The translations under genes were made by a program, and so were the position numbers. DNA of 42,792 nt from a virus. The notes under the pieces are model-generated. The model saw only the letters and a list, made by a program, of their open reading frames with translations, was not told where the DNA came from and ran no database searches. How positions within the stretch are numbered: position 1 is the first letter of the stretch; each line of letters opens with the position of its first letter. Of the stretch, positions 21,453 to 41,354 are shown one piece after another. The stretch is from positions 1 through 42,792 of IMG/VR virus record IMGVR_UViG_3300047335_000010; one strand, given 5' to 3'.

Positions 21453-22288
21453 ATATTCAGGAATTTAATTATTCGGTTAATTTATTACAGTCGATCCTCT
21501 GGCAATACGACGAAGCGACGAATCTTATCGGATTAATTAATAAAAAAAATAGTTGGTATAACGTTAATCAAACTCAATTTTGGGAGAATTGGTATAACAA
21601 CGTTTTTAATTTATTAACGGCGAATTCTTTCGGTTTATCCGTGTGGTCGATTATCTTAAATTTACCGTTGTTTTTATTAGCAACGCCCGAGCCGGACGAT
21701 GCACCAATATTCGGGTTTAACTCGTTCTTGCAAACCGGTACGTTAATAAGCGGCATGAATACGGTAAGTGGTTTAGCCGATACGTCAAAAATGTTTATAG
21801 GTCAAACACTATGGGACAATAATATTAATATCCCGAACGGGACGACCGTTGCAAGCATTGTAGATGCTAACAATATTACAATGTCAGCGAATGCAAACGG
21901 AAGCGCAACCGAAATTATTACGTTTTTTATCGGTAATAGTTATTTAAATTTTGGTCACTACCCTCGCGTTGGTAATCAAGGCGGCAATTTCTCAAATCGC
22001 GGATCGATTATTGTTCTTACCGCAGAAGAACAGCGTTTCGCGCTACGATTAAAATATTATAAGTTATGCAGTCGAGGCGATGTGACTGACGTTAACCAGT
22101 TTTTAAATTATCTTTGTGCGACATCTAATATCGGATACGCGGGCACGATCTATATGCTCGATAATGTAAACATGACGATCACTTATCATTTTACGACGAC
22201 AACATTCCCGAGTGCGCTTTTAGATACGATAATGCAGTATGATTTATTCCCCCGACCCGCAGGCGTCGGGATTTTATATTCAGCGTAA
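21449..22288 (+). CDS. Baseplate/tail-fibre adaptor (DUF2612-like)
   Basis: The N-terminus NYSVNLLQSILWQYDEATNLIGLI resembles DUF2612. ATGA overlap with the J-like gene. Confidence 0.5.
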   Translation: MNIQEFNYSVNLLQSILWQYDEATNLIGLINKKNSWYNVNQTQFWENWYNNVFNLLTANSFGLSVWSIILNLPLFLLATPEPDDAPIFGFNSFLQTGTLISGMNTVSGLADTSKMFIGQTLWDNNINIPNGTTVASIVDANNITMSANANGSATEIITFFIGNSYLNFGHYPRVGNQGGNFSNRGSIIVLTAEEQRFALRLKYYKLCSRGDVTDVNQFLNYLCATSNIGYAGTIYMLDNVNMTITYHFTTTTFPSALLDTIMQYDLFPRPAGVGILYSA

Positions 22289-22300
22289 GGATACGAGACT

Positions 22301-23380
22301 ATGACACGACTATATTATATCTACCCGTTCGGGACGAGCGCCGATGATTTAACATCCATCCCGAATACGCCTCCGACCGATGGGAGCGTTAACTACCAAA
22401 CCGGATGGACAGACGCGTATGAATTAGACTTATTGACTAACCCCGCCGCTCTCCCGATCCCACGCGGACAGATGAATCAATTACTTTTAGATATTACGAC
22501 GAACATACAGCAATATCAGCAATATGGCGTGCCCTTCTGGATAAGCTCGGCCGATAACGGCGGCTCGTCTTTCCCGTACGCGCAATGGGCGCTCGCGAGT
22601 TATGGCGGCATCGTGTACGAAAGTCAGGTCGCAAGTAATGTATCAACCCCCGGAACCGATCCGAACTGGTTGCAATTGTCCGCAAATTATAATGGGGTAC
22701 AACCGGGCGTTGTTATCGACTACGCAGGATATAGCGGCGTCGTGGTGCCGGGCGTTCCAATCCCGAATTTGCCCGGATATTTTCTTTGCGACGGTACGGC
22801 AATAAGCCGTTCGACTTATTTAAATTTACGCGAAGCAATCACGATCACGCAGACGGGTACAACAACCAATACGATGAGCACCATAAGCGGATTGACGGAT
22901 ACATCCGATATGTATATCGGAATGCCGATCGAAGGTACGAACATACCGTTATCAACAACGGTTGCAACTATCGTCGATGCAAATAATATTACAATCTCAA
23001 ACCCGGCGACCGGAAGCGGGTCGGGAACGCTCGTCTTTTTCCCGTGGGGCAATGGTGACAATGCAACGACCTTTAACCTGCCCGATTTACGACGCAAAAC
23101 AACGGCGGGCAAATTCGGCACAGGCAGCACGACGTTAGGGAACAAGGTCGGTCAAAGTGGCGGTGAAGAAGCGCACACAATGACGACCGATGAGCTCGTC
23201 CATCACTCGCACAATGCAACCAGCGCCCAGCAATTTTTGACGACCGGAAGCGGGTTTTTATATGGGGCGGGGACGAATGGCGGGCAATTATCGGGTACAA
23301 CGGCGAACAGTACCGGCGCGCAGAATGCTTTTAATGTCGTGCAGCCGACCGCAATCGTTAATAAAGCGATTAAGTACTAA
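22301..23380 (+). CDS. Tail fibre protein with split phage tail-collar domain
   Basis: Collar motifs GYFLCDGTAISRSTYLNLREAI and FNLPDLRRKTTAG...GEEAHTMTTDELVHHSH are separated by an insertion of about 70 aa. Confidence 0.7.
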   Translation: MTRLYYIYPFGTSADDLTSIPNTPPTDGSVNYQTGWTDAYELDLLTNPAALPIPRGQMNQLLLDITTNIQQYQQYGVPFWISSADNGGSSFPYAQWALASYGGIVYESQVASNVSTPGTDPNWLQLSANYNGVQPGVVIDYAGYSGVVVPGVPIPNLPGYFLCDGTAISRSTYLNLREAITITQTGTTTNTMSTISGLTDTSDMYIGMPIEGTNIPLSTTVATIVDANNITISNPATGSGSGTLVFFPWGNGDNATTFNLPDLRRKTTAGKFGTGSTTLGNKVGQSGGEEAHTMTTDELVHHSHNATSAQQFLTTGSGFLYGAGTNGGQLSGTTANSTGAQNAFNVVQPTAIVNKAIKY

Positions 23381-23871: not shown

Positions 23872-24092
23872 AATTATTCAAGGATATTCTAACTGGCGCA
23901 GATAACGACACGTTCGATCATGGGCGTGTGGTGGGCTTAATGAGTTTTCTCGTATATTTCGTATTGGCATTTTACGACCTGATTACCGAACATAAATGGC
24001 AGGCGATGGATTTCGCAACCGGTGTAAGCGCGATGGCGGTCGGGTTCGGGGCTAACCTTAAACTTAAAAGCGATACGGAGCCGAAAGCATGA
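23868..24092 (+). CDS. Putative holin
   Basis: 74 aa with two hydrophobic segments (VVGLMSFLVYFVLAFYDLI and FATGVSAMAVGFGANL). ATGA overlap with the endolysin stop, and it lies between the endolysin and spanin genes. Confidence 0.55.
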   Translation: MKLFKDILTGADNDTFDHGRVVGLMSFLVYFVLAFYDLITEHKWQAMDFATGVSAMAVGFGANLKLKSDTEPKA

Positions 24093-24403
24093 CGGAACGA
24101 ATCGAACGAATAATAATGGTTTTTATGGCGACCTTGATCGGGATGCTCGCGGTATGGTTTTTTTATAGTAATTTCCGCATGAATAATTATCGCGAGGAAA
24201 TTATCACGTATCAAACACAAATTGACGCGTTGGAAATGGAATCGGAGCAACAGGCGAAGCGGTTCGACGATTCGAAAAAACGTGCTACCTACGAGATGCA
24301 GCAGGTAAAAGACCAGACGGCGAAGTTACTCGCAACGAAAGTACCCAAAGATTGCAAGCTCGCGATGGATTGGGGGCGACGTGCCGCACAAGCTTTTCGT
24401 TAG
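24089..24403 (+). CDS. i-spanin (Rz-like)
   Basis: N-terminal TM helix MVFMATLIGMLAVWFFY followed by a charged coiled coil. Its 3' end overlaps a lipoprotein ORF. Confidence 0.6.
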   Translation: MTERIERIIMVFMATLIGMLAVWFFYSNFRMNNYREEIITYQTQIDALEMESEQQAKRFDDSKKRATYEMQQVKDQTAKLLATKVPKDCKLAMDWGRRAAQAFR

Positions 24404-24620
24404 CCTTATCGTGATTGCACTCGCCGGGTGCGCGACGAAACCGACGCGGCTCGCATACGATTGCCCGCGCATCGAATTGCCGCCCGATCCGATCACAACG
24501 GTCACGGCGCTTAACGATGAATCCGGCGCGGATGAGATTATCAAAGCATGGGTCGCAACGGCCTACGCTTACCGCGGCTGGAATTTAGTCGTACGAAAAC
24601 AAGTAGAAAATTCCAAGTAA
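24381..24620 (+). CDS. o-spanin (Rz1-like outer-membrane lipoprotein)
   Basis: Signal peptide with lipobox LAGC (LFVSLIVIALAGCATKPT) and a Pro-rich mature part. GTG start after GGGGG, overlapping the i-spanin 3' end by 23 nt. Confidence 0.7.
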   Translation: MPHKLFVSLIVIALAGCATKPTRLAYDCPRIELPPDPITTVTALNDESGADEIIKAWVATAYAYRGWNLVVRKQVENSK

Positions 24621-24811
24621 CCAAGATATCATTCTTTCATGGCAACCGCGGCGTTGACAGCGAAACGCACGAGTATGGGAATACGAAAGCCCATTCGATA
24701 ACCGCGAACTTTGACTGTGAAGGGGAAGCGTGTCGGAACCTTCTGCAAACGTAAGGACAGTCTAGCCGGTGCAATTCCGGCCGATTGCCAATTAATTAAT
24801 GAGAGGAAGTT

Positions 24812-25126
24812 ATGGAACTAAATATAAGCCCGCAAGATATAGATAAATACGTCAAAGACGTACTACTTCAATGTACAATCGGAAAAAATATAAAAGAAGG
24901 TATCGAAAAAAGTGTAAAGGAAATTTTCTCGGGTTATCGTAACCCAGTCGATGAATTCGTTAAGGCCGAACTTAATAATATAGTTAAAGAATATATGAAT
25001 AGAGACGAAGTTAAACCTATTATTATTGAAGCAATCGCAAAAGCTATTACTCCCGACGCCATTCAAACTATCGTTAATTATGGGGTAAGCGAAGTAGCGA
25101 GACGATACAAGGAATATAATACCTAA
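24812..25126 (+). CDS. Hypothetical protein (AT-rich accessory cassette)
   Basis: 104-aa helical K/E/I-rich ORF with RBS GAGAGGAAG. Its composition is clearly AT-richer than the structural genes. Confidence 0.55.
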   Translation: MELNISPQDIDKYVKDVLLQCTIGKNIKEGIEKSVKEIFSGYRNPVDEFVKAELNNIVKEYMNRDEVKPIIIEAIAKAITPDAIQTIVNYGVSEVARRYKEYNT

Positions 25127-25341
25127 TGACTCGCGACGAATTTAGAAAAAAGTACGAGAAACATGTCTATCTAGGGGATTCGGTATACGCTCGTTTCGAT
25201 GGCTACCATATCATACTCGAAACGATAAATGGACTCCCTGACGATCCAAGTAATTCAATAGCGCTCGAACCGGACGTTATGCTGAAGTTATTAGACTATC
25301 AAACGTGGCTATATCAAGAAGCTGAGGCTATCGAGAAATGA
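25126..25341 (+). CDS. Hypothetical protein
   Basis: 71-aa ORF whose start overlaps the upstream stop (TAATG). Confidence 0.5.
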   Translation: MTRDEFRKKYEKHVYLGDSVYARFDGYHIILETINGLPDDPSNSIALEPDVMLKLLDYQTWLYQEAEAIEK

Positions 25342-25544
25342 AAATACTTACTTTAGAGCAAACTGACGCGCGCGAAGTTAAGATCGTTGCGTCTGCAATT
25401 ACCGCCGTCGCAAAGATCGAAATCAGCGAGACACATTCCGTGCTTGACGTGCATTGCGTGGTAACGAGTTATAACGTGACCGATACACACGAGGTTATAA
25501 AAGATACGTATGACGCATTAATCGCGGAATTAAAATCGCTATGA
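25338..25544 (+). CDS. Hypothetical protein
   Basis: 68-aa ORF with ATGA overlap. Confidence 0.5.
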   Translation: MKILTLEQTDAREVKIVASAITAVAKIEISETHSVLDVHCVVTSYNVTDTHEVIKDTYDALIAELKSL

Positions 25545-25798
25545 AAATTCATATTAATATAGAACGGTGCGACAATGACCCAGATTTAAAAAAATTAAGA
25601 ATTTACGATGAATACAATAATCTTATTTATAGTTTTCATGGCAAACATAGTTGGATCGAGGATTTATCAATTCGACAAATCGACACGATTGAGCATATTA
25701 CTAATGCTATTTTAAGAGAAGTGAGGCGAAGAAATGAAGAGATATGTCAGCCAATTTGTGATCCGTCAACGGTCGCTACAATTACGCGCGAGATTTAA
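25541..25798 (+). CDS. Hypothetical protein
   Basis: 85-aa ORF with ATGA overlap. Confidence 0.5.
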   Translation: MKIHINIERCDNDPDLKKLRIYDEYNNLIYSFHGKHSWIEDLSIRQIDTIEHITNAILREVRRRNEEICQPICDPSTVATITREI

Positions 25799-25858
25799 AC
25801 CGATCCTCTGGGATTCGTTAAAGCTCGGAACTTATATCCGAAAGAAACATGGGGCGTT

Positions 25859-26146
25859 ATGAACCTATCTGATCACGTGTGCTCTCTCGAACTAGCGACA
25901 CGATTAAAAGAGCTCGGCGTCAAACAGGAAAGCATGTTTTCATGGTTTCATTGTTCCGACGGTTCGTATGAGCTTGACTACGGTTTAGACGGGATTCCGC
26001 CACTACCGGATGAATATATCTCGGCGTTCACCGTTTCGGAGCTTGATCTATTAATACCTACGATACTCCGTCGATCCGAAACGGAAGCGGACATAAGAGC
26101 GAAAAAGTTAATTAACGTATTGGAGCTTAAAAATGGTCTCAGGTGA
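25859..26146 (+). CDS. Hypothetical protein
   Basis: 95-aa ORF with N-terminal SLELATRLKELGVKQES, preceded by GGGG. Confidence 0.5.
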   Translation: MNLSDHVCSLELATRLKELGVKQESMFSWFHCSDGSYELDYGLDGIPPLPDEYISAFTVSELDLLIPTILRRSETEADIRAKKLINVLELKNGLR

Positions 26147-26438
26147 ACCGACTCTTATCGAATGTAAGCGTTGCGGCAAATGCGTCGAACTCAATACGCT
26201 GCACGGGTGTACGCCCGTTGATAACGTTAATCATCCGCCACATTATACGAGCTCAAAAGCCATGTGCTCGGGATGCGAAAAAACTATCGAATGTATAGAC
26301 GTGACGCGTCATTTAAGTTTTAACATCGGTAACGCGATAAAATATCTTTGGCGGTACAAAGACAAAAATGGCATCGAAGACCTACAGAAAGCAATCTGGT
26401 ATATCAACGACGAGATCGAGAAATTATGGAAGTTATAA
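26133..26438 (+). CDS. DUF3310-like protein with N-terminal CxxC...C zinc-ribbon-like segment
   Basis: VNHPPHYTS...IECIDV...FNIGNAIKYLWRYKDKNGIEDLQKAIWYI matches the DUF3310 (SaV-like) signature. The N-terminus carries CKRCGKC. Confidence 0.65.
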   Translation: MVSGEPTLIECKRCGKCVELNTLHGCTPVDNVNHPPHYTSSKAMCSGCEKTIECIDVTRHLSFNIGNAIKYLWRYKDKNGIEDLQKAIWYINDEIEKLWKL

Positions 26439-26524
26439 CCAACTGGCCGCAAGCGTTCGTCGGTATGGGTGTCGCATTCGCCGCGGCGGCCGTTTTAATC
26501 GTTTTAATTATATGGCAGTCGTAA
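26426..26524 (+). CDS. Possible 32-aa single-pass membrane peptide
   Basis: MEVITNWPQAFVGMGVAFAAAAVLIVLIIWQS. It is below the ORF-track size cutoff, fills the gap to parA and overlaps the DUF3310 gene end. Confidence 0.3.
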   Translation: MEVITNWPQAFVGMGVAFAAAAVLIVLIIWQS

Positions 26525-26525
26525 C

Positions 26526-27158
26526 GTGATTATATCCCTACTTCAAGAAAAGGGCGGTAGCGGCAAGACGACGATCTCGATTAATCTCGCGAAAGCGTTT
26601 CAATCACTCGGCTATACGGTATTACTCGTCGATTCCGATCCGCAGGGCTCAACGCGCGATTGGCATACGAATAATAATGGCAATACCCTCGATGTGATTG
26701 GCCTTGACCGACCAACGATCGATAAAGATATAAAACGGTTTACCCGCCAGTATGATTATATTTTTATTGATGGCGCGCCGCATTTATCCGTCATGGTCAC
26801 GAAGACTATTATTATATCTGACGTCGTGCTCGTCCCGGTTCAGCCGTCGCCGTACGATGTGTGGGCGAGCGCCTCGCTCGTCTCGCTCATTAAGCAGCGC
26901 CAAGAGATAACGGATGGCAAGCCCAAAGCCGCGTTCGTTATTAGCCGCAAGATCGTCGGGACGAATATCGGGCGAGAAGTTAATACCGCCTTGATTGAGT
27001 ACGGCTTGCCGATCGTCTCGGGCGGTACGTGCCAACGCGTGAGTTATGCGGAGACGGCCGCAAAGGGCTTGACCGTTTTATCGAGTGACGATAATTCGGC
27101 CAAGAGCGAAATGAGCATACTAGCCGCGAATGTATTGGAGTTTTCTAAAAATGATTAA
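26526..27158 (+). CDS. parA: ParA/Soj-family partition ATPase (small, type Ib-like)
   Basis: Deviant Walker A in MIISLLQEKGGSGKTTISINLA, then LLVDSDPQGS and IFIDGAP. 210 aa with no N-terminal HTH. GTG start. Confidence 0.85.
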   Translation: MIISLLQEKGGSGKTTISINLAKAFQSLGYTVLLVDSDPQGSTRDWHTNNNGNTLDVIGLDRPTIDKDIKRFTRQYDYIFIDGAPHLSVMVTKTIIISDVVLVPVQPSPYDVWASASLVSLIKQRQEITDGKPKAAFVISRKIVGTNIGREVNTALIEYGLPIVSGGTCQRVSYAETAAKGLTVLSSDDNSAKSEMSILAANVLEFSKND

Positions 27159-27336
27159 AGCTAAAAAAGATACGTCACGGGTCGCAAAGCTTCAAAAGCA
27201 AATGTTATCGCCCAAGAAAAATTTAAACGTCGAGATCGACGCGGCGCTATTCAAACGATTTAAAGCGAAGGTCGCCGCGAACGGTGAGACCATGACGGAA
27301 ATTCTCACCGGGGCGATACTGGACTATTTAGCGTGA
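27151..27336 (+). CDS. Ribbon-helix-helix partner protein (ParG/CopG-like centromere-binding candidate)
   Basis: 61 aa with a basic N-terminal tail, then NLNVEIDAALFKRFKAKVAANGETMTEILTGAILDYL (beta strand, helix, helix pattern). ATG at 27151 overlaps the parA stop. Confidence 0.55.
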   Translation: MIKAKKDTSRVAKLQKQMLSPKKNLNVEIDAALFKRFKAKVAANGETMTEILTGAILDYLA

Positions 27337-31990: not shown

Positions 31991-33099
31991 TTATCAAAAA
32001 CCTTCCGCGCCTGTTTTTCGTCGACGGCGGTGAGCTTTAACGCGCCGCGCTGGCGTTCGCAGTAAACTTCGACCAAGGCTTCGTCTATGCCCGCGACGAT
32101 CGCTTGCCGCGGCGTGAGTGCGACGTCCGGCTTCTTAAGGTCGTACCCGAGTAATTCCCCCATTTTTAAGACTTCCCCGACCGGTACGCCCCACGCCAAG
32201 CGGCCGGGCGCGGATTCGAGCGCGAAGAACGGCACGCGGTCGCCCCGACGGATCATGGCGGTCGCTTGTTCTTCGAGCCCCGCGATGCGGGCTTCAAGTA
32301 ACGCCCGGGCGCGTTGCAAGTAACGAAGCTCACCCCCAAGTTGAAATGAGTCGAGCTCAATCGGAATGTTATCGTAGGACGCGTCGGCGGCCACAAGGGC
32401 GGATTGCCGCAGGGTCGGGCAGGCGTGACGGGCGGCACAGTAGTTGCATTCAGGACTAACGCGGGTCGTGGCGATCTCTTGCACGGCTTCCGCTTCGACT
32501 TGCCGAAGGATATCAAAATATATTTCGAGGGTAACAAGCGACGATTTCCATGTGCGGACATTACCGGACGGATGATAAGAGCGGGGCTGGACAATGTGAA
32601 ATACGACGTCGAGGTCATTTGCCGTCAATCCCAGCGGTAACCCGTCGAGAATACCGGCCGCGTATTCGATTAATTGCCAGTTTTCGAAGACTTCGACATA
32701 ACCATGACCGAATTTATAATCGAAAATATGAAGCTCATTTTCTTTCACAAACCAGCAATCGGGCGTCCCGAAACAATCCGGGTGAATGGTCGAGATATCG
32801 ACACGTTCCTCGATGTGTAAAACTGCGCCGCCCCTCACGGCTTCAATTGAATTTTCGTATAGGATGGCACCTTCGATCATTTCGTCGGTAATCGGCTCGC
32901 CATTGGGGGCAACGTGGGGAAACGAATCCATACAATGGACTTGATTAAAACGCCACGCGGCCAGCCAATGCGCCGCCTCGCCTTCACGCGCAGCGGGCGA
33001 TTGTTCGGCAGATTTATATTTTTCCTCAAGCGCGCGGGAACCGGGACAAGCGACCCGGCGCGCAGCCGATGAGGGCGGTAATTTTGAATGTTCGGTCAT
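31987..33099 (-). CDS. PD-(D/E)XK nuclease (DUF2800 / Cas4-RecB-like) with C-terminal Cys cluster
   Basis: The N-terminus HSKLPPSSAARRVACPGS is typical of DUF2800. Core residues appear in IFDYKFGHG, and the C-terminus has a Cys cluster CNYCAARHAC. Confidence 0.7.
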   Translation of the reverse strand: MTEHSKLPPSSAARRVACPGSRALEEKYKSAEQSPAAREGEAAHWLAAWRFNQVHCMDSFPHVAPNGEPITDEMIEGAILYENSIEAVRGGAVLHIEERVDISTIHPDCFGTPDCWFVKENELHIFDYKFGHGYVEVFENWQLIEYAAGILDGLPLGLTANDLDVVFHIVQPRSYHPSGNVRTWKSSLVTLEIYFDILRQVEAEAVQEIATTRVSPECNYCAARHACPTLRQSALVAADASYDNIPIELDSFQLGGELRYLQRARALLEARIAGLEEQATAMIRRGDRVPFFALESAPGRLAWGVPVGEVLKMGELLGYDLKKPDVALTPRQAIVAGIDEALVEVYCERQRGALKLTAVDEKQARKVFDK

Positions 33100-33320
33100 T
33101 TCGGTGCCTCCGGTAATGGTTGCCAGTGAGTTATTTCCCAGTACCCGTCATCGATTAATATTTTTTCCCCGAATGCGTCTTGAAAATAATTGTCTCGCCA
33201 GTCATATACACCGACGCTATAAATTTTTCTTTGATGCGACCAAGAAGCGACTATGTAAGTTCGGAATCCTTCGGGTTGTCTATCTGGAAGTCGATCTTTT
33301 ATATTTATCCAGTCGGTCAT
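33096..33320 (-). CDS. DUF551 protein
   Basis: WINIKDRLP...ITHWQPLPEAP. Confidence 0.7.
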   Translation of the reverse strand: MTDWINIKDRLPDRQPEGFRTYIVASWSHQRKIYSVGVYDWRDNYFQDAFGEKILIDDGYWEITHWQPLPEAPK

Positions 33321-33532
33321 ATAGGAAACTCCGGTAAATATTGCCAGTGAGTTATTTCATGAGGAATATCCGAAAAATAAAAAATAATATCGTCCCATTC
33401 CGTGTATTCACCATTTAAAAAACTGAACGTGGACATAACGACCATATCTTTTTTATCTTGGCAGACAACATGTACAAGAACTTTTTCGCCTACCGGCGGA
33501 TGTTGTTTTTTAATATCGATCCAATTACTCAT
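33317..33532 (-). CDS. DUF551 protein (tandem paralogue)
   Basis: WIDIKKQHPP...ITHWQYLPEFP. Confidence 0.7.
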   Translation of the reverse strand: MSNWIDIKKQHPPVGEKVLVHVVCQDKKDMVVMSTFSFLNGEYTEWDDIIFYFSDIPHEITHWQYLPEFPI

Positions 33533-34419
33533 ACGCTCGTCCCCGCCATATACGTATCGATAAATTCCGAGACGCCCGCGAACAGATCGGGACGGCAGGG
33601 CAGTACTGCAAGGGACGGCATCCCGACGGATTCGACCGCCCGAACGACCGTTTCTTGCGTGATTTTCCCTTGCTGGACGAGCCCGGTTATTTTTTTCATA
33701 AGGGACGGCCAGTCGAGCTCAGGCGCATCGGATTTAAACCCCGCGAATTCGCCACCTTTAACTGGCGCACTTGGCGCACTTGGCGCACTTGGCGCACTTG
33801 GCGCACTTGGCGCACTTGGCGCACTTGGCGCACTTGGCGCACTTGGCGCACTTGGCGCATCGGTCGAGGCGCGTAATTGCTGCGAGATTTCGTCGACTTT
33901 TCGCAAGTCTATCCCGCGCTGGACTTTCCACGTCCCGTCCGCATTCTTACTCTTGGTGCGCGTGTGTATACGGGCGTCCCACGGTAGCCCTGCCGTATCG
34001 AGGTCAACGCCGGTTTTAATCGGACGCGGAACAAGGTCGGGATCAACTGTGAACGGATTGAACGCAGCGTCCGGTAGCCCGGGCGCAGGCGGGGGCGTCA
34101 GGTCGCGGAGCGGTTCGACCGGGGCGGGCATTTTATACGAGGGGACAGGTTTATCGCCTTCGGGTATTAACTCGTTACAACCGTCCGTACTGACGGGTTT
34201 CTCGGAATTAGCTGGGCTAGTTCCGACCGGGGCGGCCATTAACTCGTTGCGCGGAACGATCCCGAGTAGGTAATCGTCGGTATTATCTTTTTTAGCAGCC
34301 GTGAGCGGAACGGGGGCGGGACGTACTTCAGCGCCCGCAATTTTCATCAATAGCGTTGCGACATCGATCAATAGTTGCCTTGGCGCAAGGTGCGGGTCGG
34401 TGATTTCAATTTTAATCAT
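33529..34419 (-). CDS. Pro-rich hypothetical protein with (APS)10 linker; first gene of leftward operon
   Basis: SD GGAGA upstream of the ATG at 34419, and ATGA coupling to the next gene. Contains a GLPWDARIH motif and a perfect APS repeat. Confidence 0.6.
   Translation of the reverse strand: MIKIEITDPHLAPRQLLIDVATLLMKIAGAEVRPAPVPLTAAKKDNTDDYLLGIVPRNELMAAPVGTSPANSEKPVSTDGCNELIPEGDKPVPSYKMPAPVEPLRDLTPPPAPGLPDAAFNPFTVDPDLVPRPIKTGVDLDTAGLPWDARIHTRTKSKNADGTWKVQRGIDLRKVDEISQQLRASTDAPSAPSAPSAPSAPSAPSAPSAPSAPSAPSAPVKGGEFAGFKSDAPELDWPSLMKKITGLVQQGKITQETVVRAVESVGMPSLAVLPCRPDLFAGVSEFIDTYMAGTSV
33764..33860. repeat. Perfect 9-bp tandem repeat GGCGCACTT x10 plus a partial unit, in frame within a CDS
   Basis: Read directly: ten identical units at 33764-33853, then GGCGCAT. 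Confidence 0.95.
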
Positions 34420-34437: not shown

Positions 34438-34482
34438 TTGACAGTCTCCGAGAGTACCTGTATATTGCTAAAAATGTCAATA
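34438..34482. promoter_or_regulatory. Divergent face-to-face promoter pair with operator copy A
   Basis: Plus strand: TTGACA (34438-43), 17 nt, TATATT (34461-66). Minus strand: TTGACA (34480-75), 18 nt, TACTCT (34456-51). The dyad TATTG-N10-CAATA lies at 34463-34482. Confidence 0.6.
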
Positions 34483-36102
34483 CTGAGACCGTACCAACAA
34501 AAAGCTATCGACGAGCTATATGCCGCGTGGGACGCTGGCGCGCGGAATGTTTGCGTGCAACTCGCAACCGGGGCGGGCAAGACCGTCATATTCTCCCATG
34601 TGATCGCGGACGAACCGGAGATATCCGTCGCCATTGCTCACCGGGTCGAGCTCGTTAGCCAGATATCCTTAACGCTCGCACGGCACGGCGTCCGGCATAA
34701 TATTATCGCGCCGACCGCTGCGATCCGTTCGATCGTCGCCTTACACATGCAGGAGCTCGGTCGGGCGTTTTACGATGGCCATGCGCGGCGGCACGTCGCG
34801 GGCGTTGATACGCTCGTCAAGATGCGCGAGCCGTGGTTCACGCAGGTCGCGCTCGTCGTGCAAGATGAAGGGCATCACCCCCTACGTGAAAATAAATGGG
34901 GTAAAGCGGCCGCATTGTTCCCCAACGCGCGCGGGCTATATCCGACCGCAACGCCTTGCCGGGCGGACGGTAAAGGGCTCGGGCGCAACGCTGACGGCAT
35001 AATTGATAAGCTTATCGTTGGTGTAGGGATGCGGGAGTTAATCCGTGAGGGGTATTTAACGGATTATCGAATATTCGCACCCCCAAGCGATCTCGACCTA
35101 TCGGCCGTTCCAGTGACGGCTACAGGAGACTACAGCCCCCCGAAGCTACGGAACGCGATACATAAGTCACATATCACGGGGGATGTTGTCTCGCATTATA
35201 TGCGGATCGCGCCGGGCAAACTCGGCGTCACGTTCGCGGTCGATATCGAATCCGCGACCGCTATCGCAACGGAATTTAAAGCGGCGGGGGTGAGCGCGGA
35301 AGTCATTAGCAGCAAGACGCCGGACGCATTACGCGCGGCGATCATGCAACGCTTTAAGCGCCGTGAGATCATGCAGCTTGTCAACGTCGACCTGTTAGGG
35401 GAAGGGTTCGATTGTCCGGCGATTGAGGTTGTAAGCTTTGCGAGACCAACCCAGAGTTTTTCCCTGTATAGCCAGCAATTCGGAAGATCGCTCCGACCAT
35501 TAGAGGGTAAAGAACATGCTATTATCATTGACCACGTTAATAATGTTATTCGTCACGGGTTACCTGATCGGCCGCGCGTATGGTCTCTTGAGAGACGGGA
35601 GCGCAAAGCGCGTTCGGCTCCTGACGATGCTATTCCTTTGCGCGTCTGTCTTAACCCTAGCTGTATGGCAGTATATCCCCGAACCCGGCGAGGGTGCCCC
35701 GTTTGCGGTCATGTCAACATTCCTGTAGCACGGTCGACACCTGAGCAAGTGGATGGCGACCTTCTCGAACTCGACCCGGACGTGCTCGCGCAAATGCGGG
35801 GCGAGATCGAACGCGTGGATGGTGCGCCGCGTGTCCCACAGCATTTAGATGCGATAGCACAAAAAGCCGTCATCAATCGGCATAAAGCCCGACAACAAGC
35901 GCAATCCGAATTACGGCAAATCATCGCCCTATGGGCAGGCTATCGCCGTCACGCGGGGTTATCAGATAGCGAAATATATCGAGAGTTTTATTTTACGTTC
36001 GACATTGACGTCATGGGCGCGCAGGCGCTCAAGGCCAATGACGCGGATAATTTATGGGATAAAATTCAGCAAGTTATTGACGGATTTAGCAATATGAAAT
36101 AG
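34474..36102 (+). CDS. SF2 DEAD/DEAH-box DNA helicase with C-terminal zinc ribbon
   Basis: N-terminal LRPYQQKAIDEL, motif I QLATGAGKT, motif II VVQDEGHH and Zn ribbon CLNPSC...CPVCGH. I prefer the ATG at 34474 (MSILRPYQ) over the ORF-track start at 34375, which would overlap the divergent gene. Confidence 0.85.
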   Translation: MSILRPYQQKAIDELYAAWDAGARNVCVQLATGAGKTVIFSHVIADEPEISVAIAHRVELVSQISLTLARHGVRHNIIAPTAAIRSIVALHMQELGRAFYDGHARRHVAGVDTLVKMREPWFTQVALVVQDEGHHPLRENKWGKAAALFPNARGLYPTATPCRADGKGLGRNADGIIDKLIVGVGMRELIREGYLTDYRIFAPPSDLDLSAVPVTATGDYSPPKLRNAIHKSHITGDVVSHYMRIAPGKLGVTFAVDIESATAIATEFKAAGVSAEVISSKTPDALRAAIMQRFKRREIMQLVNVDLLGEGFDCPAIEVVSFARPTQSFSLYSQQFGRSLRPLEGKEHAIIIDHVNNVIRHGLPDRPRVWSLERRERKARSAPDDAIPLRVCLNPSCMAVYPRTRRGCPVCGHVNIPVARSTPEQVDGDLLELDPDVLAQMRGEIERVDGAPRVPQHLDAIAQKAVINRHKARQQAQSELRQIIALWAGYRRHAGLSDSEIYREFYFTFDIDVMGAQALKANDADNLWDKIQQVIDGFSNMK

Positions 36103-36128
36103 CCTTATGCTAACATGGAGGGCATTGC

Positions 36129-36599
36129 ATGAAGCTAAATGAGTGGGCGGCGCGTTGGAACATATCGTCGTGGGCGCTCGATGACTTGCGTACGATCTTT
36201 GGTATCGCGGGATGCGAGTCGCGCGAATCGGGACAGTCGGAATCGGCGATACAATCCGAAATCCGGCTCGAAGCTGTGACCGTCGGGGCGCGTCTTTGGC
36301 GCAATAACGTCGGCGCGACCTATGCCCGGGACGGTTCGTTTCTACGGTATGGACTTGCGAACGAATCCGGGGCGGTTAACGCCCGGGTGAAATCGGCCGA
36401 CCTTATCGGCATACGACCGGTCAAGATCGAACCCGGTCACGTCGGCTGGACGATCGGCCAGTTTGTCAGCCGGGAAGTGAAAGCGGGCGGCTGGCAATAC
36501 CGGGCGACCGATCGAGAGCAAGCCCAATTAAGATGGGCAGAGCTTATAATGAGTTTAGGGGGTGACGCGGTATTTGCGACGGGCAAGGGGACACTATGA
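36129..36599 (+). CDS. VRR-NUC domain nuclease
   Basis: SESAIQSEIRLE...WRNNVG...SADLIGIRP...FVSREVKAGG...QAQLRWAELIMSLGGDAVF fits the VRR-NUC / PD-(D/E)XK pattern. RBS GGAGGG. Confidence 0.65.
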   Translation: MKLNEWAARWNISSWALDDLRTIFGIAGCESRESGQSESAIQSEIRLEAVTVGARLWRNNVGATYARDGSFLRYGLANESGAVNARVKSADLIGIRPVKIEPGHVGWTIGQFVSREVKAGGWQYRATDREQAQLRWAELIMSLGGDAVFATGKGTL

Positions 36600-36778
36600 A
36601 CCATGTAAGAAATGATAATGCCGATGCCACATGGTGCGGTGAGTTATCTAATTATGAATTTTATTTTAAGACAATTGACCAAGCGGCCGTTAACGGGCAG
36701 CACGGCGATCGTCCGGTATGCAGGGAGTGCGTCCGTGTGATCGTCGAATGCCTTGAACGGCACGCCGTCGGGGAGTAA
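36596..36778 (+). CDS. Small Cys-containing hypothetical protein
   Basis: 60-aa ORF with ATGA overlap. Cys residues at WCGE, CRECV and ECL. Confidence 0.45.
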   Translation: MNHVRNDNADATWCGELSNYEFYFKTIDQAAVNGQHGDRPVCRECVRVIVECLERHAVGE

Positions 36779-36783
36779 GTAAT

Positions 36784-37098
36784 ATGTCAAGAGCAAAACG
36801 AACGAGGCCTGCCGTCAGGCGCGAACAGCTAATCGACGCGGCTATAAAAATAAGTAAAGAAATAGGGTACAATAAGCTTACACGCGATAAAGTCATGAAA
36901 GAAGTCGGCATAACCGTCTCTCTTTTAAGCTATTATTTTCCTCGCATGTCAGACTTAAAAAACGCTGTTATGGATGCGGCGGTCGAACGTGGAATTGTCG
37001 AAGTTATTGCACAGGGAATCACTTTAAACGATCCGCGCGCACTCACGATCAATCCGCAAACCAAACTACAGGTAATCGCATTTATGATGCAAACTTGA
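36784..37098 (+). CDS. Short TetR-family-like HTH DNA-binding protein
   Basis: REQLIDAAIKISKEIGYNKLTRDKVMKEVGITVSLLSYYFPRMSDLKNAVM matches the TetR_N pattern. At 104 aa it lacks most of the usual ligand-binding domain. Confidence 0.6.
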   Translation: MSRAKRTRPAVRREQLIDAAIKISKEIGYNKLTRDKVMKEVGITVSLLSYYFPRMSDLKNAVMDAAVERGIVEVIAQGITLNDPRALTINPQTKLQVIAFMMQT

Positions 37099-37111
37099 AG
37101 GATTATTTACT

Positions 37112-39436
37112 ATGGAAGCTTTCACGAAATATAATCAATTTATCCTCTATATGATCGTACCGTCCCGCCGTTCAGGTAAAAACGATAAGATGCCAATTAA
37201 TTGGCGAACCGGGAAAGTCGCGAACGCACACGACCCGAAAATCTGGCTATCACGGGATCAAGCTAATATCAAAGCAAAGGAATTGAACGCGCGCGTCGGT
37301 TTCGTATTCACTAAGGACGACCCGTTTTTCTTCATCGATATTGACGATTGTTATGACCCTACGACTAACCAATGGTCAACTCTCGCGTTAAAAATGCTTG
37401 CCGCCTTTCAAGGCGCAGCGGTCGAAGTCTCAAGCGGTGGTCGCGGCCTTCACATATTCGGCACCGGTACCGTTCCGCCGCATACGTGCCGCAACGCCGA
37501 AAATAAACTCGAATTTTATACCGACGGACGTTTTGTCGCGCTTACCGGGTTCCATGCAACGGGTGATGCCGGTAAGGATTGTTCGGCCGTACTCCCGTGG
37601 CTAGTCGAGACGTACTTCAAGCCGGAACCGGATAGCGGTTCGTCATTGCAACCGTGGACGACCGAAGCCGTTAAAGGCTACCGTTGCGAATCGACGGACG
37701 ACGAATTAATCGAGCGGATGCTGCAATCAAAACCGGTGTCGGCCATATTCGGCGATGGCATTACGTTCCGCGATCTTTGGGAAGCGAACGAGCCGGTACT
37801 TGCGAAAGCGTATCCGCCGAACGAAACGGATAACTATAACCGGAGCTCCGCCGATGCGGCACTCGCGCAACGACTCGCTTTCTGGACGGGCAAGAATTGC
37901 GAACGGATCGAGACGTTAATGAAGAGGTCGGCCTTAGTCCGCGAGAAATGGGAACGTAACGACTATCTCCCGAACACCATTCGAGCGGTGTGCGGGAGAC
38001 AAATAGAAGTGCTTTACGATAAGCCCCCAGAATATACGACAGCACCCGATAAGATTCAAGCGGACGATGCGCCACGGCCTAAGCTCGTCACCGGCTCGAC
38101 GTTCCTCACAGTCGATCAACAGATCGATTATTTCGCCGGGTGCGTGTACGTGCTCGACGAACACAAGGTCATGATACCGGACGGCCAGCTACTCACCCCC
38201 GAACGGTTCAAGGCGTACTATGGCGGTAATATGATGCCGCTCGATGTCGCTAATACGAAGACGACCCGGAACGCTTTCGAGGCATTTACTGAATCGCAGG
38301 CATTCCGGGCACCGCGGGCGGATTCCTGTATTTTCCGTCCAGACTGTACCCCGGGAGGCATCGTATTGGATGACGGGCGACGGATGGCGAATATCTATCA
38401 CCCAGTACACACCTTGCGGATGTCCGGCGAGATCGCCCCGTTCGTGCGCCACATTGAAAAGTTATTCCCCGACCGGCGCGACCAAGACATTATCCTCGCT
38501 TATCTTGCGGCGATCATTCAATACAAGGGCGTTAAATTCCAATGGTGCCCGCTCATACAAGGCGTGGAGGGAAACGGAAAGACTTTCCTGACCTACGCCG
38601 TTGCGTTCGCGATCGGCCAACGATATAGCCATTTCCCGAAAGCGGCCGAGATCGCCTCGAAATTCAATGATTGGCTATACGCCCGTATTTTCGTCGGGGT
38701 CGAAGATATCTTTCTCGCCGATTCGAAATTCGAGGTAATCGAAGCATTAAAGCCGATGATTACCGGGCAATACCAAGAAATCGAGGCGAAGGGCGGGACG
38801 AAAATCACGCGGAGTATTTGCGCGAATTTCATCCTGAATACCAATCACAAGGACGGGCTCAGGAAGACCCGCAACGATCGCCGGTTCGCCCCGTTCTATA
38901 CCCCGCAGCAAAACGCGCAAGACTTGATACGGGACGAAATGGACGCACGCTATTTTTCCGAATTATATAAATGGGCGAGGAAGTGTAACGGGTACGCAAT
39001 CATTCATTGGTTTCTGGCAGGTTATGCGATCCCCGATGCGCTTAATCCCGCGCATGGCGAGAAAGCGCCACAGACAAGCTCAACCGAGGCCGCTATCGAG
39101 CAGGGCATGGGACGCATCGAGCAGGAAGTACTCGAAGCCGTAGCGGAAGGTTTATCGGGCTTCCGGGGCGGCTGGGTATCCTCGATCGCACTCGATAATT
39201 TACTCGTACGCGTGAAAGCGGATCGCGCCATGCCAAGGCGCAAACGCCGCGAGATGATGGAAAGTTTGGGTTATGGGTGGCATCCGGCATTAAAAGACGG
39301 CCGCATGACCCGGAACGTCCAGCCGGATGGTAGCAAGCCGACACTATACCTTCGTTTCGATCATGTAGCGCTTAAACTGCAAACGGTTGAAGACATTGCA
39401 AAAGCCTACACGGAAGCACAGACGAAAGTTGATTAA
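37112..39436 (+). CDS. Bifunctional primase-polymerase (AEP) + SF3 helicase (P4 alpha / D5-like)
   Basis: AEP motifs FFFIDIDDC and GGRGLHIFG. C-terminal Walker A QGVEGNGKTF and Walker B IFVGVEDI. 774 aa. Confidence 0.8.
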   Translation: MEAFTKYNQFILYMIVPSRRSGKNDKMPINWRTGKVANAHDPKIWLSRDQANIKAKELNARVGFVFTKDDPFFFIDIDDCYDPTTNQWSTLALKMLAAFQGAAVEVSSGGRGLHIFGTGTVPPHTCRNAENKLEFYTDGRFVALTGFHATGDAGKDCSAVLPWLVETYFKPEPDSGSSLQPWTTEAVKGYRCESTDDELIERMLQSKPVSAIFGDGITFRDLWEANEPVLAKAYPPNETDNYNRSSADAALAQRLAFWTGKNCERIETLMKRSALVREKWERNDYLPNTIRAVCGRQIEVLYDKPPEYTTAPDKIQADDAPRPKLVTGSTFLTVDQQIDYFAGCVYVLDEHKVMIPDGQLLTPERFKAYYGGNMMPLDVANTKTTRNAFEAFTESQAFRAPRADSCIFRPDCTPGGIVLDDGRRMANIYHPVHTLRMSGEIAPFVRHIEKLFPDRRDQDIILAYLAAIIQYKGVKFQWCPLIQGVEGNGKTFLTYAVAFAIGQRYSHFPKAAEIASKFNDWLYARIFVGVEDIFLADSKFEVIEALKPMITGQYQEIEAKGGTKITRSICANFILNTNHKDGLRKTRNDRRFAPFYTPQQNAQDLIRDEMDARYFSELYKWARKCNGYAIIHWFLAGYAIPDALNPAHGEKAPQTSSTEAAIEQGMGRIEQEVLEAVAEGLSGFRGGWVSSIALDNLLVRVKADRAMPRRKRREMMESLGYGWHPALKDGRMTRNVQPDGSKPTLYLRFDHVALKLQTVEDIAKAYTEAQTKVD

Positions 39437-39452
39437 GTATAGGCGGTCGTCT

Positions 39453-39485
39453 ATAGTTGCACGTCTATATAAGGGGTGCAACTAT
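39453..39485. repeat. Perfect 10-bp inverted repeat ATAGTTGCAC-N13-GTGCAACTAT
   Basis: Read directly, 17 nt after the primase-helicase stop. No following T-tract. Confidence 0.85.
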
Positions 39486-39550
39486 GCGGCTATTTGCGAT
39501 AAGTTTCGGTACGTATTATGTTTATTTGATTATCCAGTTTTGGGGGAATT

Positions 39551-39700
39551 ATGCACACATACAAAGTTTGGTTCCGTAAATTGGTAAATGGCGCGTGGGG
39601 CGCAGAGAGCGCGCGGGTCGTTTACGCTGAAAATATCGTGACCGCCCGGGCGATGGTATTAACCAAGGACGTCATTATCGAGCGCATCCTCCGGCTATAG
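39551..39700 (+). CDS. Possible 49-aa protein (not in ORF track)
   Basis: MHTYKVWFRKLVNGAWGAESARVVYAENIVTARAMVLTKDVIIERILRL, preceded by GGGGG 5 nt upstream. Confidence 0.3.
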   Translation: MHTYKVWFRKLVNGAWGAESARVVYAENIVTARAMVLTKDVIIERILRL

Positions 39701-39709
39701 CGTCAAATT

Positions 39710-39913
39710 TCACTTAGGTTCAACGATTACCTTCTGCCTAGGCCGATACCTGCGGTCAAGCTCGATGTCGGCCGCAGGGATAAGGATAGAGCGCCCGCAG
39801 TCACAGCGCTTATGGTTAGGGAAATGGCCTTGCTTGAGTTTAGCGTCGATTCGTTGCTTACAGACGCCCAAAAGCTCGGCGGCCTCGGCGGTCGTTAGTT
39901 TCTTCTTTTTCAT
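39710..39913 (-). CDS. HTH DNA-binding protein (excisionase/AlpA/MerR-like fold)
   Basis: LTTAEAAELLGVCKQRIDAKLKQGHFP...ILIPAADIE, with SD GAGGGGAG. It is a lone minus-strand gene abutting the iteron field. Confidence 0.6.
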   Translation of the reverse strand: MKKKKLTTAEAAELLGVCKQRIDAKLKQGHFPNHKRCDCGRSILIPAADIELDRRYRPRQKVIVEPK

Positions 39914-40020
39914 GGTCTCCCCTCACAATTGCCGCGGAGTATAGCAATAACCGTAATTTGCGGTATACTAAATCCGTAACTTCCTAGTGACACAATCCTC
40001 GCGTTAATCCCTGTCAATGA

Positions 40021-40460: not shown

Positions 40461-40575
40461 CCGTTTTCGTCCGTTCGGCGACCGTTTTCGTCCGTTCGGC
40501 GACCGTTTTCGTCCGTTCGGCGACCGTTTTCGTCCGTTCGGCGACCGTTTTCGTCCGTTCGTCGGCCGTTCGGCG
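40461..40575. repeat. 21-bp tandem repeat CCGTTTTCGTCCGTTCGGCGA, 4 perfect + 1 degenerate units
   Basis: Units start at 40461, 40482, 40503, 40524 and 40545. CCGTT recurs every 10-11 bp. The overlapping ORFs encode only repeat peptides. Confidence 0.9.
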
Positions 40576-41350: not shown

Positions 41351-41354
41351 TATA

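Follow-up and report, generated by a model that had tools for sequence, protein, structure and literature searches.

Background

To our knowledge, DNA segregation is the sole documented role of ParF-type ATPases that are paired with a tailed ribbon-helix-helix (RHH) partner. The delta/omega pair of pSM19035 is a type Ib system in which omega, a global regulator of the RHH type, recognises arrays of heptads. Among phages, the Cluster A mycobacteriophages carry parABS in place of an integrase and have extrachromosomal prophages; they use type Ia ParA/ParB proteins and a defined repressor. In the field, a ParA with its cognate partner in an integrase-less phage is taken as the mark of a phage-plasmid (PMC12977533; bioRxiv 2024.12.31.630880). 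Phage-plasmids are recognised as important and under-sampled, and their ten defined types come almost all from cultured Enterobacterales and a few other groups (PMC12977533).

We analysed a viral sequence of 42,792 nucleotides, hereafter the window, for which an earlier note had proposed a ParF/ParG-like partition cassette in a phage maintained as a low-copy circular plasmid prophage. Judged by its sequence, the cassette is a real type Ib partition module, and the lineage that carries it is a probable, though unproven, new phage-plasmid-like lineage.

A ParF-like ATPase and its RHH partner

The cassette and the elements directly upstream of it are as follows.

26426-26524, plus strand: ORF for a hydrophobic 32-aa product, with a single nt between its stop and the parA GTG; also called on the identical contig L003
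26491-26508, plus strand: two tandem copies of CGTTTTAAT, 18 nt upstream of parA and inside an ORF
26526-27158, plus strand: parA, GTG start, 210 aa, ParF-like (type Ib) partition ATPase
27151-27336, plus strand: predicted ParG-like centromere-binding protein, ATG start, 61 aa, overlapping parA; its family profile leads to ParG

A small ParA with the motif KGGSGKTT, overlapped by the gene of a 61-aa basic RHH protein, had been described for this locus, and the coordinates were confirmed to the base, with an overlap of 8 nt. The same two genes were called by an independent gene caller on the identical Logan contig (L003). Run ERR9963754 contains an 8.4-kb contig that matches the window without a difference across the par region. 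The ParA ORF starts with MIISLLQEKGGSGKTT, which places the deviant Walker A motif at residues 9-16. In the Pfam search, ParA matched AAA_31 (3.8e-25) and CbiA (1.5e-14); it also matched PHROG 164, 'ParA-like partition protein' (9.7e-41), and scored 244 bits against the NCBIfam equivalog NF041546 ParA_partition ("ParA family partition ATPase"), for which the cut-off is 180. The top solved structure was ParF of TP228 (E=6e-30), residues 2-204 of ParA being aligned to residues 3-202 (of 206) of ParF. Its size (type Ib range, ~190-230 aa), the missing N-terminal HTH, which type Ia proteins have, and the deviant Walker A of the form KGGxxGK[ST] are those of a type Ib ATPase. ParA is among the most conserved proteins of the genome, with 72% identity between the window and its relative L004, against 36-73% for the other proteins. 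The closest ParA proteins of cultured phages belong to the hapunaviruses VP882, phiHAP-1, MAR, VP585 and VHML (45-47% identity). PADLOC reported no similarity to defence systems for the cassette or the neighbouring genes.

The partner contains 12 K/R against 6 D/E in its 61 aa. Its first 23 residues are a tail rich in Lys and Arg (MIKAKKDTSRVAKLQKQMLSPKK), and the RHH domain follows at residues ~24-61. As a single sequence, the partner gave only sub-threshold Pfam matches (RHH_10, 5.8e-4; ParG, 5.2e-3). Because a direct homologue search with the 61-aa protein returned only two matches, further partners were gathered from the contexts of ParA homologues. A profile of eight members of this family had ParG of TP228 (1p94) as its best match (E=2e-7, over RHH residues 33-75), followed by omega of pSM19035 (E ~4e-3). 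A small RHH-fold partner is thus encoded directly downstream of parA, although its single sequence stays below the Pfam thresholds. The two halves of the cassette point independently to ParF and ParG of TP228, as the type Ib layout proposed earlier would have it, and we consider both the identity of the two proteins and the coupling of their genes established. An AlphaFold monomer model of the partner, built from a three-sequence alignment, was of low confidence (pLDDT 61) and gave no usable fold. Neither BLASTP nor profile-profile comparison detected homology between the partner and VP882 gp52, phiHAP-1 gp32 or the partner encoded on contig L005.

The basic N-terminal tail (M-x-I/L-L-K-x-K...) occurred in 10/10 ParA-linked partners, with a basic residue conserved at the position of R10. 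By comparison, none of six ParA-less relatives with an RHH protein at the same place had a comparable tail; their RHH proteins start 2-6 residues ahead of the beta-strand, and an in-frame stop rules out a tail in four of the six. By analogy with the known systems, the Lys/Arg-rich tail is a candidate activator of the ParA ATPase.

Candidate DNA sites

The parA gene comes last in the long run of structural and lysis genes transcribed in one direction. It abuts the 32-aa ORF, which leaves no space for a promoter immediately ahead of it, and its translation is probably coupled to this ORF. Promoter scans near parA remained at chance level. A repeat scan of the same region in this genome yielded nothing above chance and no centromere-like array adjoining parA. 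The tandem CGTTTTAAT is a weak candidate for an operator or centromere box, and the motif was not enriched genome-wide (18 matches found vs 26 expected). Where relatives have an intergenic gap, three repeats of 9-10 nt occupy it directly ahead of parA (ATCTTTAAAT three times in L004, ATTAAACTA three times in L010), which is the usual place of type Ib centromere arrays that double as operators. At the equivalent place in the window ATCTTTAAAT is missing, and the window differs from its relatives in the DNA-facing residues of the RHH strand. The L004 motif upstream of parA recurs within the replication operon of that phage; in the window, no repeated motif was common to parA and other promoters.

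Two repeat regions lie far downstream of the cassette.

40020-40353, unstranded: thirteen GGCCGGTAT boxes in both orientations, flanking an AT-rich tract of ~50 bp (40254-40302)
40461-40570, plus strand: five 21-bp direct repeats (CCGTTTTCGTCCGTTCGGCGA), with CCGTT boxes every 10-11 bp; 0.01 expected

The first corresponds to the iteron origin named in the earlier note. The GGCCGGTAT motif was enriched in the genome (33 matches vs 13 expected), a count reached in 0/100 shuffles, and the region is most likely the replication origin; it is a candidate centromere as well. The L004 phage has the same architecture in its origin region, built on another motif, AAAGCCCGAA (L024:15414-15868). The second array sits directly upstream of terS (40649-41074, assigned on the basis of PHROG 309) and is a candidate for a centromere or a pac/TerS site. 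It is not conserved ahead of terS in the L004 phage, and CCGTTTT showed no significant enrichment outside the array. We rejected the 8-10-mers common to the region upstream of parA and the 40-kb repeat region (CGTTCGTCGG, CGGCCGTT) as sharing at chance level.

Genome closure, replication and lysogeny control

Three further features describe the genome as a whole.

1-82 and 42711-42792, unstranded: exact terminal overlap of 82 nt (100% identity), closing to a 42,710-bp circle
36784-37098, strand not given: TetR_N fragment, 104 aa
39710-39913, strand not given: excisionase-family HTH, 66 aa

The contig closes into a circle, so the window represents the whole genome; called ORFs cover ~97% of it. 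Integration genes were not detected in this complete genome, in agreement with the earlier claim. A Pfam scan at E<=0.01 covered every called ORF but the 32-aa one at 26426-26524 (64 of 65), the minus-strand DUF551 gene at 33096-33320 entering only as a wrong plus-strand ORF, and also the 10 largest ORFs in alternative frames; it gave no match to an integrase, resolvase, transposase or protelomerase. A tblastn search for protelomerase with the VP882 and phiHAP-1 enzymes was also negative (E>=0.55). The proteins with no family match include one of 296 aa (33529-34419), one of 256 aa (41316-42086) and those of several small ORFs.

The genome encodes its own replisome, as had been stated, comprising PolA, a DUF2800 nuclease, an SSB-like protein, a helicase and a primase-polymerase/DUF5906 protein (Pfam). 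These replication genes are of phage type (PolA, primase-polymerase), and the iteron-like origin region accompanies them. GC skew follows gene orientation and was therefore discarded as a clue to the replication mode. The virion, packaging and lysis set is complete, with TerS, TerL, portal, major capsid protein, sheath, tube, baseplate, fibres, endolysin and spanin. The 'repressor-like HTH proteins' of the earlier note came down to the TetR_N fragment and the excisionase-family HTH listed above. Scans with Pfam, PHROG, NCBIfam and PADLOC detected no CI/Cro-type repressor or immunity module, antirepressor or toxin-antitoxin genes. Of the features that characterise phage-plasmids, the genome thus has a virion set, a partition function and freedom from integration genes, and shows no recognisable lysogeny control.

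Distribution of the cassette among relatives

The syntenic ParA-positive relatives are six to seven metagenomic phage contigs of ~43-51 kb. Their gene order is tail fibre, (lysis and small genes), parA, an overlapping gene of 62-77 aa, and a convergent PolA module. This order is kept in L004, L010, L016, L017, L018, L064 and L092, with ParA identities of 58-72%. In the PolA tree, seven of the eight ParA-positive phages, the window included, formed one clade, with L010 outside; PolA divergence within the clade is ~35-40%. The conservation of the cassette is thereby established. Among the 120 closest clusters of ParA homologues, the longest contig measured 39-51 kb in 19, and in no cluster did a contig exceed 51 kb.

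In IMG/VR, at least 12 relatives share the layout from tail to PolA yet have neither ParA nor an integrase. A sister clade of the ParA-positive phages is in an RHH-only state, and a further clade has neither ParA nor the RHH protein. Among cultured phages, Scuro (Acinetobacter), SppYZU01 (Shewanella) and vB_OsaM_PD0307 (Oceanospirillum) share the replication module, with PolA proteins 45-53% identical to that of the window, and have no ParA; PD0307, which was compared by PolA only, has been reported as lytic (PMC10132091). In their annotated regions, Scuro and SppYZU01 resemble the window in the divergent helicase, the TetR-like gene and the convergence of PolA operon and tail genes, but no ParA or tailed RHH protein separates their lysis genes from the PolA module. 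The baseplates of these cultured myoviruses are Mu-like, whereas that of the window is E217-like.

The cassette had been called unexpected for a phage with the DUF1073/DUF2184/DUF3383 structural module. This is a weak argument because the module is mosaic: in IMG/VR it also occurs beside integrases (L045, L075), and in KLEP17-4 it stands beside a lambdoid early region. In two distant structural relatives, an integrase gene follows the tail and lysis genes.

The earlier note had also suggested isolate assemblies as a place to look for an extrachromosomal circle, and no isolate genome or plasmid record with the element was found. Megablast with 12 kb and 23 kb of the window gave no DNA match in PLSDB or among cultured phages. 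A PolA-alignment scan of 185,579 species genomes returned no isolate and two contigs from metagenome-assembled genomes, one with no ParA in its 1 kb and the other ending before the relevant region.

Discussion

On balance, we lean towards a functional type Ib module that is conserved in an uncultured, integrase-less myovirus clade with a PolA replisome, and whose likeliest consequence is that the genome can persist as an unintegrated low-copy episome. Such an episome could be a phage-plasmid, or it could reflect a carrier or pseudolysogenic state of a looser kind. Modelled on ParFG of TP228 and delta/omega of pSM19035, the mechanism would begin with dimers of the 61-aa RHH protein binding short repeated boxes on the phage DNA, while ATP-bound ParA dimers would coat the nucleoid. 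With its N-terminal tail, rich in Lys and Arg, the RHH protein would stimulate ATP hydrolysis by ParA, and the resulting ParA gradient would separate the copies of the circular phage genome, one per daughter cell. For the low-copy circular plasmid prophage proposed earlier, the cassette, the closed genome and the lack of integration genes speak in favour; a CI-like repressor, a centromere array adjoining parA and an isolate or plasmid record were not found. We only infer plasmid-prophage maintenance, because no immunity module was found in the genome, many backbone relatives are ParA-less, a cultured relative is reported to be lytic and no host record was found.

A strictly virulent phage, in which ParA and the RHH protein serve the lytic cycle or competition, is possible, though we regard it as doubtful. 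The pair might position or separate replicating phage genomes on the nucleoid, disturb the segregation of the host chromosome or plasmids, or act mainly as an RHH transcription factor with ParA as co-regulator. The backbone is indeed lytic-like, since it brings a PolA, a primase-helicase, a helicase and a nuclease of its own and shows no CI-like repressor, and the cultured phages that share the replication module do without ParA, one of them being the reported lytic phage. The RHH-only sister clade implies a ParA-independent role of the RHH protein, and the recurrence of the putative RHH motif within the replication operon of L004 suggests a regulatory one; the placement of parA in the late/lysis transcription direction, with no clear promoter of its own, points the same way. 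However, a segregation role is the established one for a ParF-type ATPase with a tailed RHH partner, the cassette has been retained across a clade in which PolA has diverged considerably, and the nearest homologues in cultured phages belong to plasmid prophages. Moreover, ParA was lacking in the persistent virulent phages surveyed in isolates (bioRxiv 2024.12.31.630880). Integration by an unrecognisably divergent recombinase, with the par genes as accessories of a temperate phage, seems very improbable to us. The family-less proteins (e.g. 33529-34419 and 41316-42086) and the excisionase-family HTH at 39710-39913 would leave some room for it, but the scanned ORFs contained no recombinase-type match, the contig closes on itself, and the ParA homologues keep to contigs of at most 51 kb. 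The same method readily found the integrases of structural-module relatives, which indicates that it is sensitive enough. Least credible is a linear plasmid prophage with hairpin telomeres of the hapunavirus kind. The similarity of ParA to those of VP882, phiHAP-1, MAR, VP585 and VHML, and the same pairing of parA with an overlapping small gene, suggest it, yet the partner proteins have no detectable homology and the remaining genome is unrelated to hapunaviruses; the missing protelomerase, by Pfam as by tblastn, effectively refutes it.

Within the episomal reading that we prefer, the origin of the cassette can be given a more speculative and, in our estimation, unlikely history. An RHH regulator already resident behind the last late genes would have acquired a ParA-activating N-terminal tail along with a ParF-like ATPase, and so turned into a centromere-binding protein. 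A lytic-type backbone would thereby have become a segregated episome with no canonical repressor or integrase, a phage-plasmid of a non-canonical kind. The tail-less lone RHH protein of the sister clade may then represent the earlier state; the direction may also be the reverse, with loss of ParA and decay of the tail.

The lineage has structural relatives by the hundred in IMG/VR, and its close ParA clusters number over 100. If it is maintained as a plasmid, a widespread environmental type would be added to the phage-plasmids, on a backbone otherwise held to be lytic and with no recognisable repressor. If it is strictly lytic, the cassette would be a rare ParF/ParG system with a non-segregation role. 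The contrast between ParA-positive phages with a tailed RHH protein and sister clades with neither ParA nor tail offers a natural experiment on how type Ib partners gain an ATPase-activating tail.

Comparison with known systems

The Cluster A mycobacteriophages offer the same concept as the window, a partition cassette that, within a phage group, takes the position of the lysogeny-maintenance module; unlike in Cluster A, the ParA-less backbone relatives of the window have neither integrase nor ParA. The hapunaviruses VP882, phiHAP-1 and VHML share with it a parA gene with a small gene overlapping by 8 nt and the lack of an integrase. However, they are linear and have a protelomerase, which the window does not; their partner proteins cannot be aligned with that of the window, and their structural and replication modules are unrelated to it. 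The recurrence of the L004 parA motif in the replication operon recalls omega, which governs copy number as well as partition, and points to a putative regulatory role; in the window itself, no repeated motif common to parA and other promoters was found.

The closest likeness is to TP228. The single sequence of the window partner falls below the Pfam ParG threshold, its length is 61 aa against 76 aa for ParG, and no parH-like box array lies directly upstream of the cassette. ParF is, like the ParA of the window, a protein of ~206-210 aa with no N-terminal HTH, and its Walker A motif KGGSGKTT is identical. ParG is likewise small and encoded downstream; its basic N-terminal tail is flexible, and its RHH domain is C-terminal. 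Unlike the TP228 system, the cassette of the window is carried by a complete tailed-phage genome.

Identification of the partition cassette

The parA ORF (26526-27158, plus strand) starts with GTG and encodes 210 aa with the N-terminus MIISLLQEKGGSGKTT, and the ATG of the 61-aa partner ORF (27151-27336) overlaps the parA stop codon, with an 8-nt overlap. The ORF list, the sequence itself and an independent gene caller run on an identical Logan contig all returned these two ORFs, confirming the coordinates and the description of a ParA/ribbon-helix-helix (RHH) pair in the earlier note. The gene caller also placed a 32-aa hydrophobic ORF at 26426-26524, separated from the parA GTG by 1 nt.

In Pfam, ParA matched AAA_31 (3.8e-25) and CbiA (1.5e-14); it was also assigned to PHROG 164 (ParA-like partition protein) and scored 244 bits against the NCBIfam equivalog NF041546 (ParA family partition ATPase), whose cut-off is 180. 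The top solved structure was ParF of TP228 (E=6e-30; residues 2-204 against 3-202 of 206). The single partner sequence showed a weak RHH_10/ParG likeness, under the Pfam thresholds. A profile built from an alignment of eight partners gathered from related loci matched ParG of TP228 best (1p94; E=2e-7, across the RHH domain), followed by the RHH protein 2kel and omega of pSM19035. Both halves thus independently indicate one type Ib system characterised by experiment, in agreement with the ParF/ParG-like assignment proposed earlier. Every sequence-level criterion tested places the cassette in the type Ib ParF/ParG class, with a putative activity and a putative centromere.

Genome organization and integration genes

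Positions 1-82 and 42711-42792 are exactly identical. This 82-nt terminal overlap indicates that the window is a closed 42,710-bp circle, and hence what the window lacks, the element lacks. A large fibre-like gene spans the circle junction (42099 onwards, continuing in 73-2838). Called ORFs cover about 97% of the window, and family scans gave the following map.

40649 through the junction to 27336, plus strand: TerS, fibre-like proteins, TerL, portal (Phage_portal_3), Mu-F-like protein, DUF2213, cement protein, major capsid, E217-type neck, sheath (DUF3383), tube, tape measure, baseplate, fibres, endolysin (GH108) with holin and spanin, seven small genes including DUF3310, then parA-RHH
34419 to 27324, minus strand: 296-aa (SAP)n protein, two DUF551 genes, DUF2800 nuclease, small genes, SSB-like protein, PolA, 119-aa membrane protein
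34474 to 39700, plus strand: helicase, VRR-NUC-like endonuclease, TetR_N fragment, primase-polymerase/DUF5906
39913 to 39710, minus strand: excisionase-family HTH

The earlier note had seen no recombinase, transposase or protelomerase and proposed a family search, which bore this out. No integrase, resolvase, transposase or protelomerase domain was found at E<=0.01 (Pfam) in 64 of the 65 called ORFs and the ten largest alternative-frame ORFs; the 32-aa ORF and the minus-strand DUF551 gene at 33096-33320, where a plus-strand ORF was scanned instead, fell outside the intended scan. No protelomerase was found by tblastn with the VP882 and phiHAP-1 enzymes. The negative integrase result is meaningful, since the same approach detected integrases in two distant relatives.

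Several further features were observed. The block 24000-27000, whose small genes end in parA-RHH, has a G+C of 0.44 versus 0.50 genome-wide, and its gene content differs among relatives; the related metagenomic locus L004 has a single 60-aa ORF from tail fibre to parA and its lysis genes elsewhere. The leftward replication operon begins with a gene (33529-34419, minus strand) that contains a perfect 9-nt tandem repeat at 33763-33859 (TGGCGCACT x10.8), which encodes (SAP)n; the orthologues of relatives have 234-239 aa versus 296 aa, so that the repeat is an apparent expansion. The DUF551 paralogues lie in tandem (33096-33320 and 33317-33532, minus strand), and a 46-nt repeat with 83% identity is shared by the start regions of the former and of the downstream DUF2800 gene. 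Four tail proteins share a short peptide module (about 20-35 aa; IP.GTTV.SIVDANNIT.S), which is present in the sheath, at the C-terminus of baseplate-J, in the DUF2612 wedge protein and in the tail fibre (14235-14298, 21842-21905, 22955-23018 and, for baseplate-J, near ~21270), with 61-73% identity at the DNA level. By eye, a near-consensus sigma-70 promoter (TTGACA-17-TATATT, 34441-34469), flanked by a TTGACA...TGTCAA inverted repeat, precedes the helicase/primase operon.

ParA relatives and the partner tail

No nucleotide match to the window was found in cultured phages or PLSDB, and its structural proteins reach at most about 42% identity to BcepF1, PB1-like, BcepB1A and similar phages. In a collection of 5.8 billion proteins, more than 100 clusters, all metagenomic, had 55-79% identity to the window ParA; the longest contig was 39-51 kb in 19 of the 120 listed clusters, and none was longer. 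Five loci were of the same phage type by context, namely L004 and L016 (both 72% ParA identity), L017 (65%), L018 (61%) and L010 (58%), and share the order tail fibre, (lysis and small genes), parA, overlapping 62-77-aa gene and convergent PolA module. Another locus, L013, pairs a 57% ParA homologue with a 71-aa partner; the phage, whose portal is P22-type, is unrelated. Together, these contexts define a phage-associated clade of ParF-like ATPases. As side observations, an Acb2/Tad1-like anti-defence gene immediately follows the cassette in L017 (7267-7464), and the PolA gene of L018 (11882-14998), at 1038 aa, points to a sizeable insertion, an intein for example.

For a ParA-unbiased sample, we aligned baseplate-J, obtained 413 IMG/VR relatives, kept 80 loci and mapped the window proteins onto them. 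About 20 of the 80 had the PolA-type backbone, and only four of these were ParA-positive (L039, L040, which is the same contig as L004, L064 and L092). ParA was absent from at least 12 loci (L038, L041/42/60, L056, L057, L059, L062, L081, L083, L090, L095, L109), so it is dispensable for this backbone. A neighbour-joining tree of PolA placed seven of its eight ParA-positive phages in one clade, with L010 outside and the ParA-less L038 inside; a sister clade (L057, L059, L062, L095) had an RHH homologue at the partner position and no ParA. The short contig L058, with no PolA match, likewise kept the RHH and had no ParA.

Most interesting among the new results, ParA and the N-terminal tail of the partner co-occur strictly across sister clades. 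All ten ParA-linked partners had a 22-32-residue tail starting M-x-(I/L)-L-K-x-K, with a basic residue conserved at the R10 position. Six ParA-less relatives (L057, L058, L059, L062, L081, L095) encoded, where the partner gene would lie, a tail-less RHH of about 47-57 aa, whose ORF starts 2-6 residues ahead of the beta-strand. Four of the six have an in-frame stop that rules out a tail. For L059 and L062 the reading frame could extend by 23-29 codons, but that stretch does not resemble the Lys/Arg tail. Such co-occurrence would be expected if the tail acts on ParA, as the ParG tail does on ParF, and among the comparative results it is the strongest sign that the pair works as a unit. Downstream of the tail-less RHH, both loci examined (L059 and L095) have a conserved ORF of about 70 aa (MKKYR(V/I)V(E/Q)F...).

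Repeats, candidate centromere and origin

The only repeat next to the window parA was a tandem CGTTTTAAT x2 (26491-26508) within the 32-aa ORF, and this motif was not enriched genome-wide in the window. Relatives with an intergenic gap have three direct repeats immediately upstream of parA: ATCTTTAAAT x3 in L004, a conserved TATAAAG-N4-CTTTAAAT-N6-8-CT(T/A)TAAATG in L017 and L018, and ATTAAACTA x3 with 16-bp spacing in L010. The L004 10-mer occurs twice more within the leftward replication operon of that phage and once downstream of its primase gene, which hints at an omega-like regulatory role; in L016 it lies 1.3 kb upstream, ahead of the operon ending in parA. It is absent from the window. 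The DNA-facing residues of the RHH strand are N-N-E in the window partner versus A-N-L (partner alignment), and a different site is therefore expected.

Two regions only held strongly non-random repeats in the window. Region 40020-40353 has 13 GGCCGGTAT boxes in both orientations around an AT-rich tract of about 50 bp (33 matches versus 13 expected, 0/100 shuffles). The same architecture with a different motif was found in the L004 phage (15414-15868 of its longer locus, L024), and the region would most simply be an origin. Region 40461-40570, with five 21-bp repeats immediately upstream of terS, has no counterpart in the L004 phage and could be a candidate centromere or a TerS/pac site. Between its origin-like repeats and terS, where the window has this array, the L004 phage carries a 411-aa gene (L024:15869-17104) for a putative DNA methyltransferase with a ParB-like N-terminal domain (by eye). 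Two near-identical elements, 40103-40132 (plus, GGCCGGTATGGCCGGTATAAAAT) and 40216-40252 (minus, GGCCGGTATGGCCGGTATAAATA), point towards each other at a distance of about 100 bp; the plus copy sits in a promoter-like site (TTAACA-18-TAAAAT), so the pair may serve as convergent promoters or as operators within the origin-like region.

Episomal or virulent lifestyle

We lean slightly towards a segregated episomal phase, either a true phage-plasmid or a carrier state. The partition pair is complete and conserved with a matched partner, the closed genome has no integration genes, ParA homologues were not seen on contigs above phage-genome size among the 120 listed clusters, the nearest cultured ParA homologues belong to plasmid prophages, and the operational criteria of the field for phage-plasmids point the same way. 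Against this, parA has no demonstrable promoter and lies at the end of the late/lysis transcription direction, ParA is patchy on this backbone, and the same replication module occurs without ParA in the cultured phages Scuro and SppYZU01. A virulent phage that employs the ParA/RHH pair otherwise is a less probable alternative; vB_OsaM_PD0307, with 45% PolA identity, was reported to be lytic (PMC10132091). Minor rivals share the remaining probability.

The plasmid-prophage proposal of the earlier note was therefore partly supported: the observation was confirmed and the partition pair and lack of integration genes stand, but CI/Cro-type genes, a uniform ParA distribution and a host record do not accompany them. 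Two further results count against an episomal phase. Family scans found no CI/Cro-type immunity genes, and the repressor-like HTH proteins invoked earlier reduce to the TetR_N fragment and the excisionase-family HTH. The element was not found in PLSDB, and one genome each from 185,579 species yielded only two contigs of metagenome-assembled genomes.

Comparison with known phage-plasmids

The structural module is mosaic in IMG/VR, where it occurs with PolA backbones, lambdoid early regions (KLEP17-4) and occasionally integrases, and the surprise voiced in the earlier note at this module is therefore unfounded. Judged by its genes, the element counts as a putative phage-plasmid under the operational definition (complete phage, no integrase, partition system); where a lysogeny switch is required it falls outside. 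Since 2015 at the latest, par genes have served to spot putative phage-plasmids in viral metagenomes (PMC4490671), and systematic listings have been compiled (PMC7969092; PMC12977533), so the kind is already known. The nearest cultured-phage ParA proteins (45-47% identity) are those of the plasmid-prophage hapunaviruses VP882, phiHAP-1, MAR, VP585 and VHML. Like the window, these phages have a small gene with an 8-nt overlap downstream of parA, although it has no detectable homology to the window partner. If it is a phage-plasmid, this lineage would represent a novel uncultured member or type.
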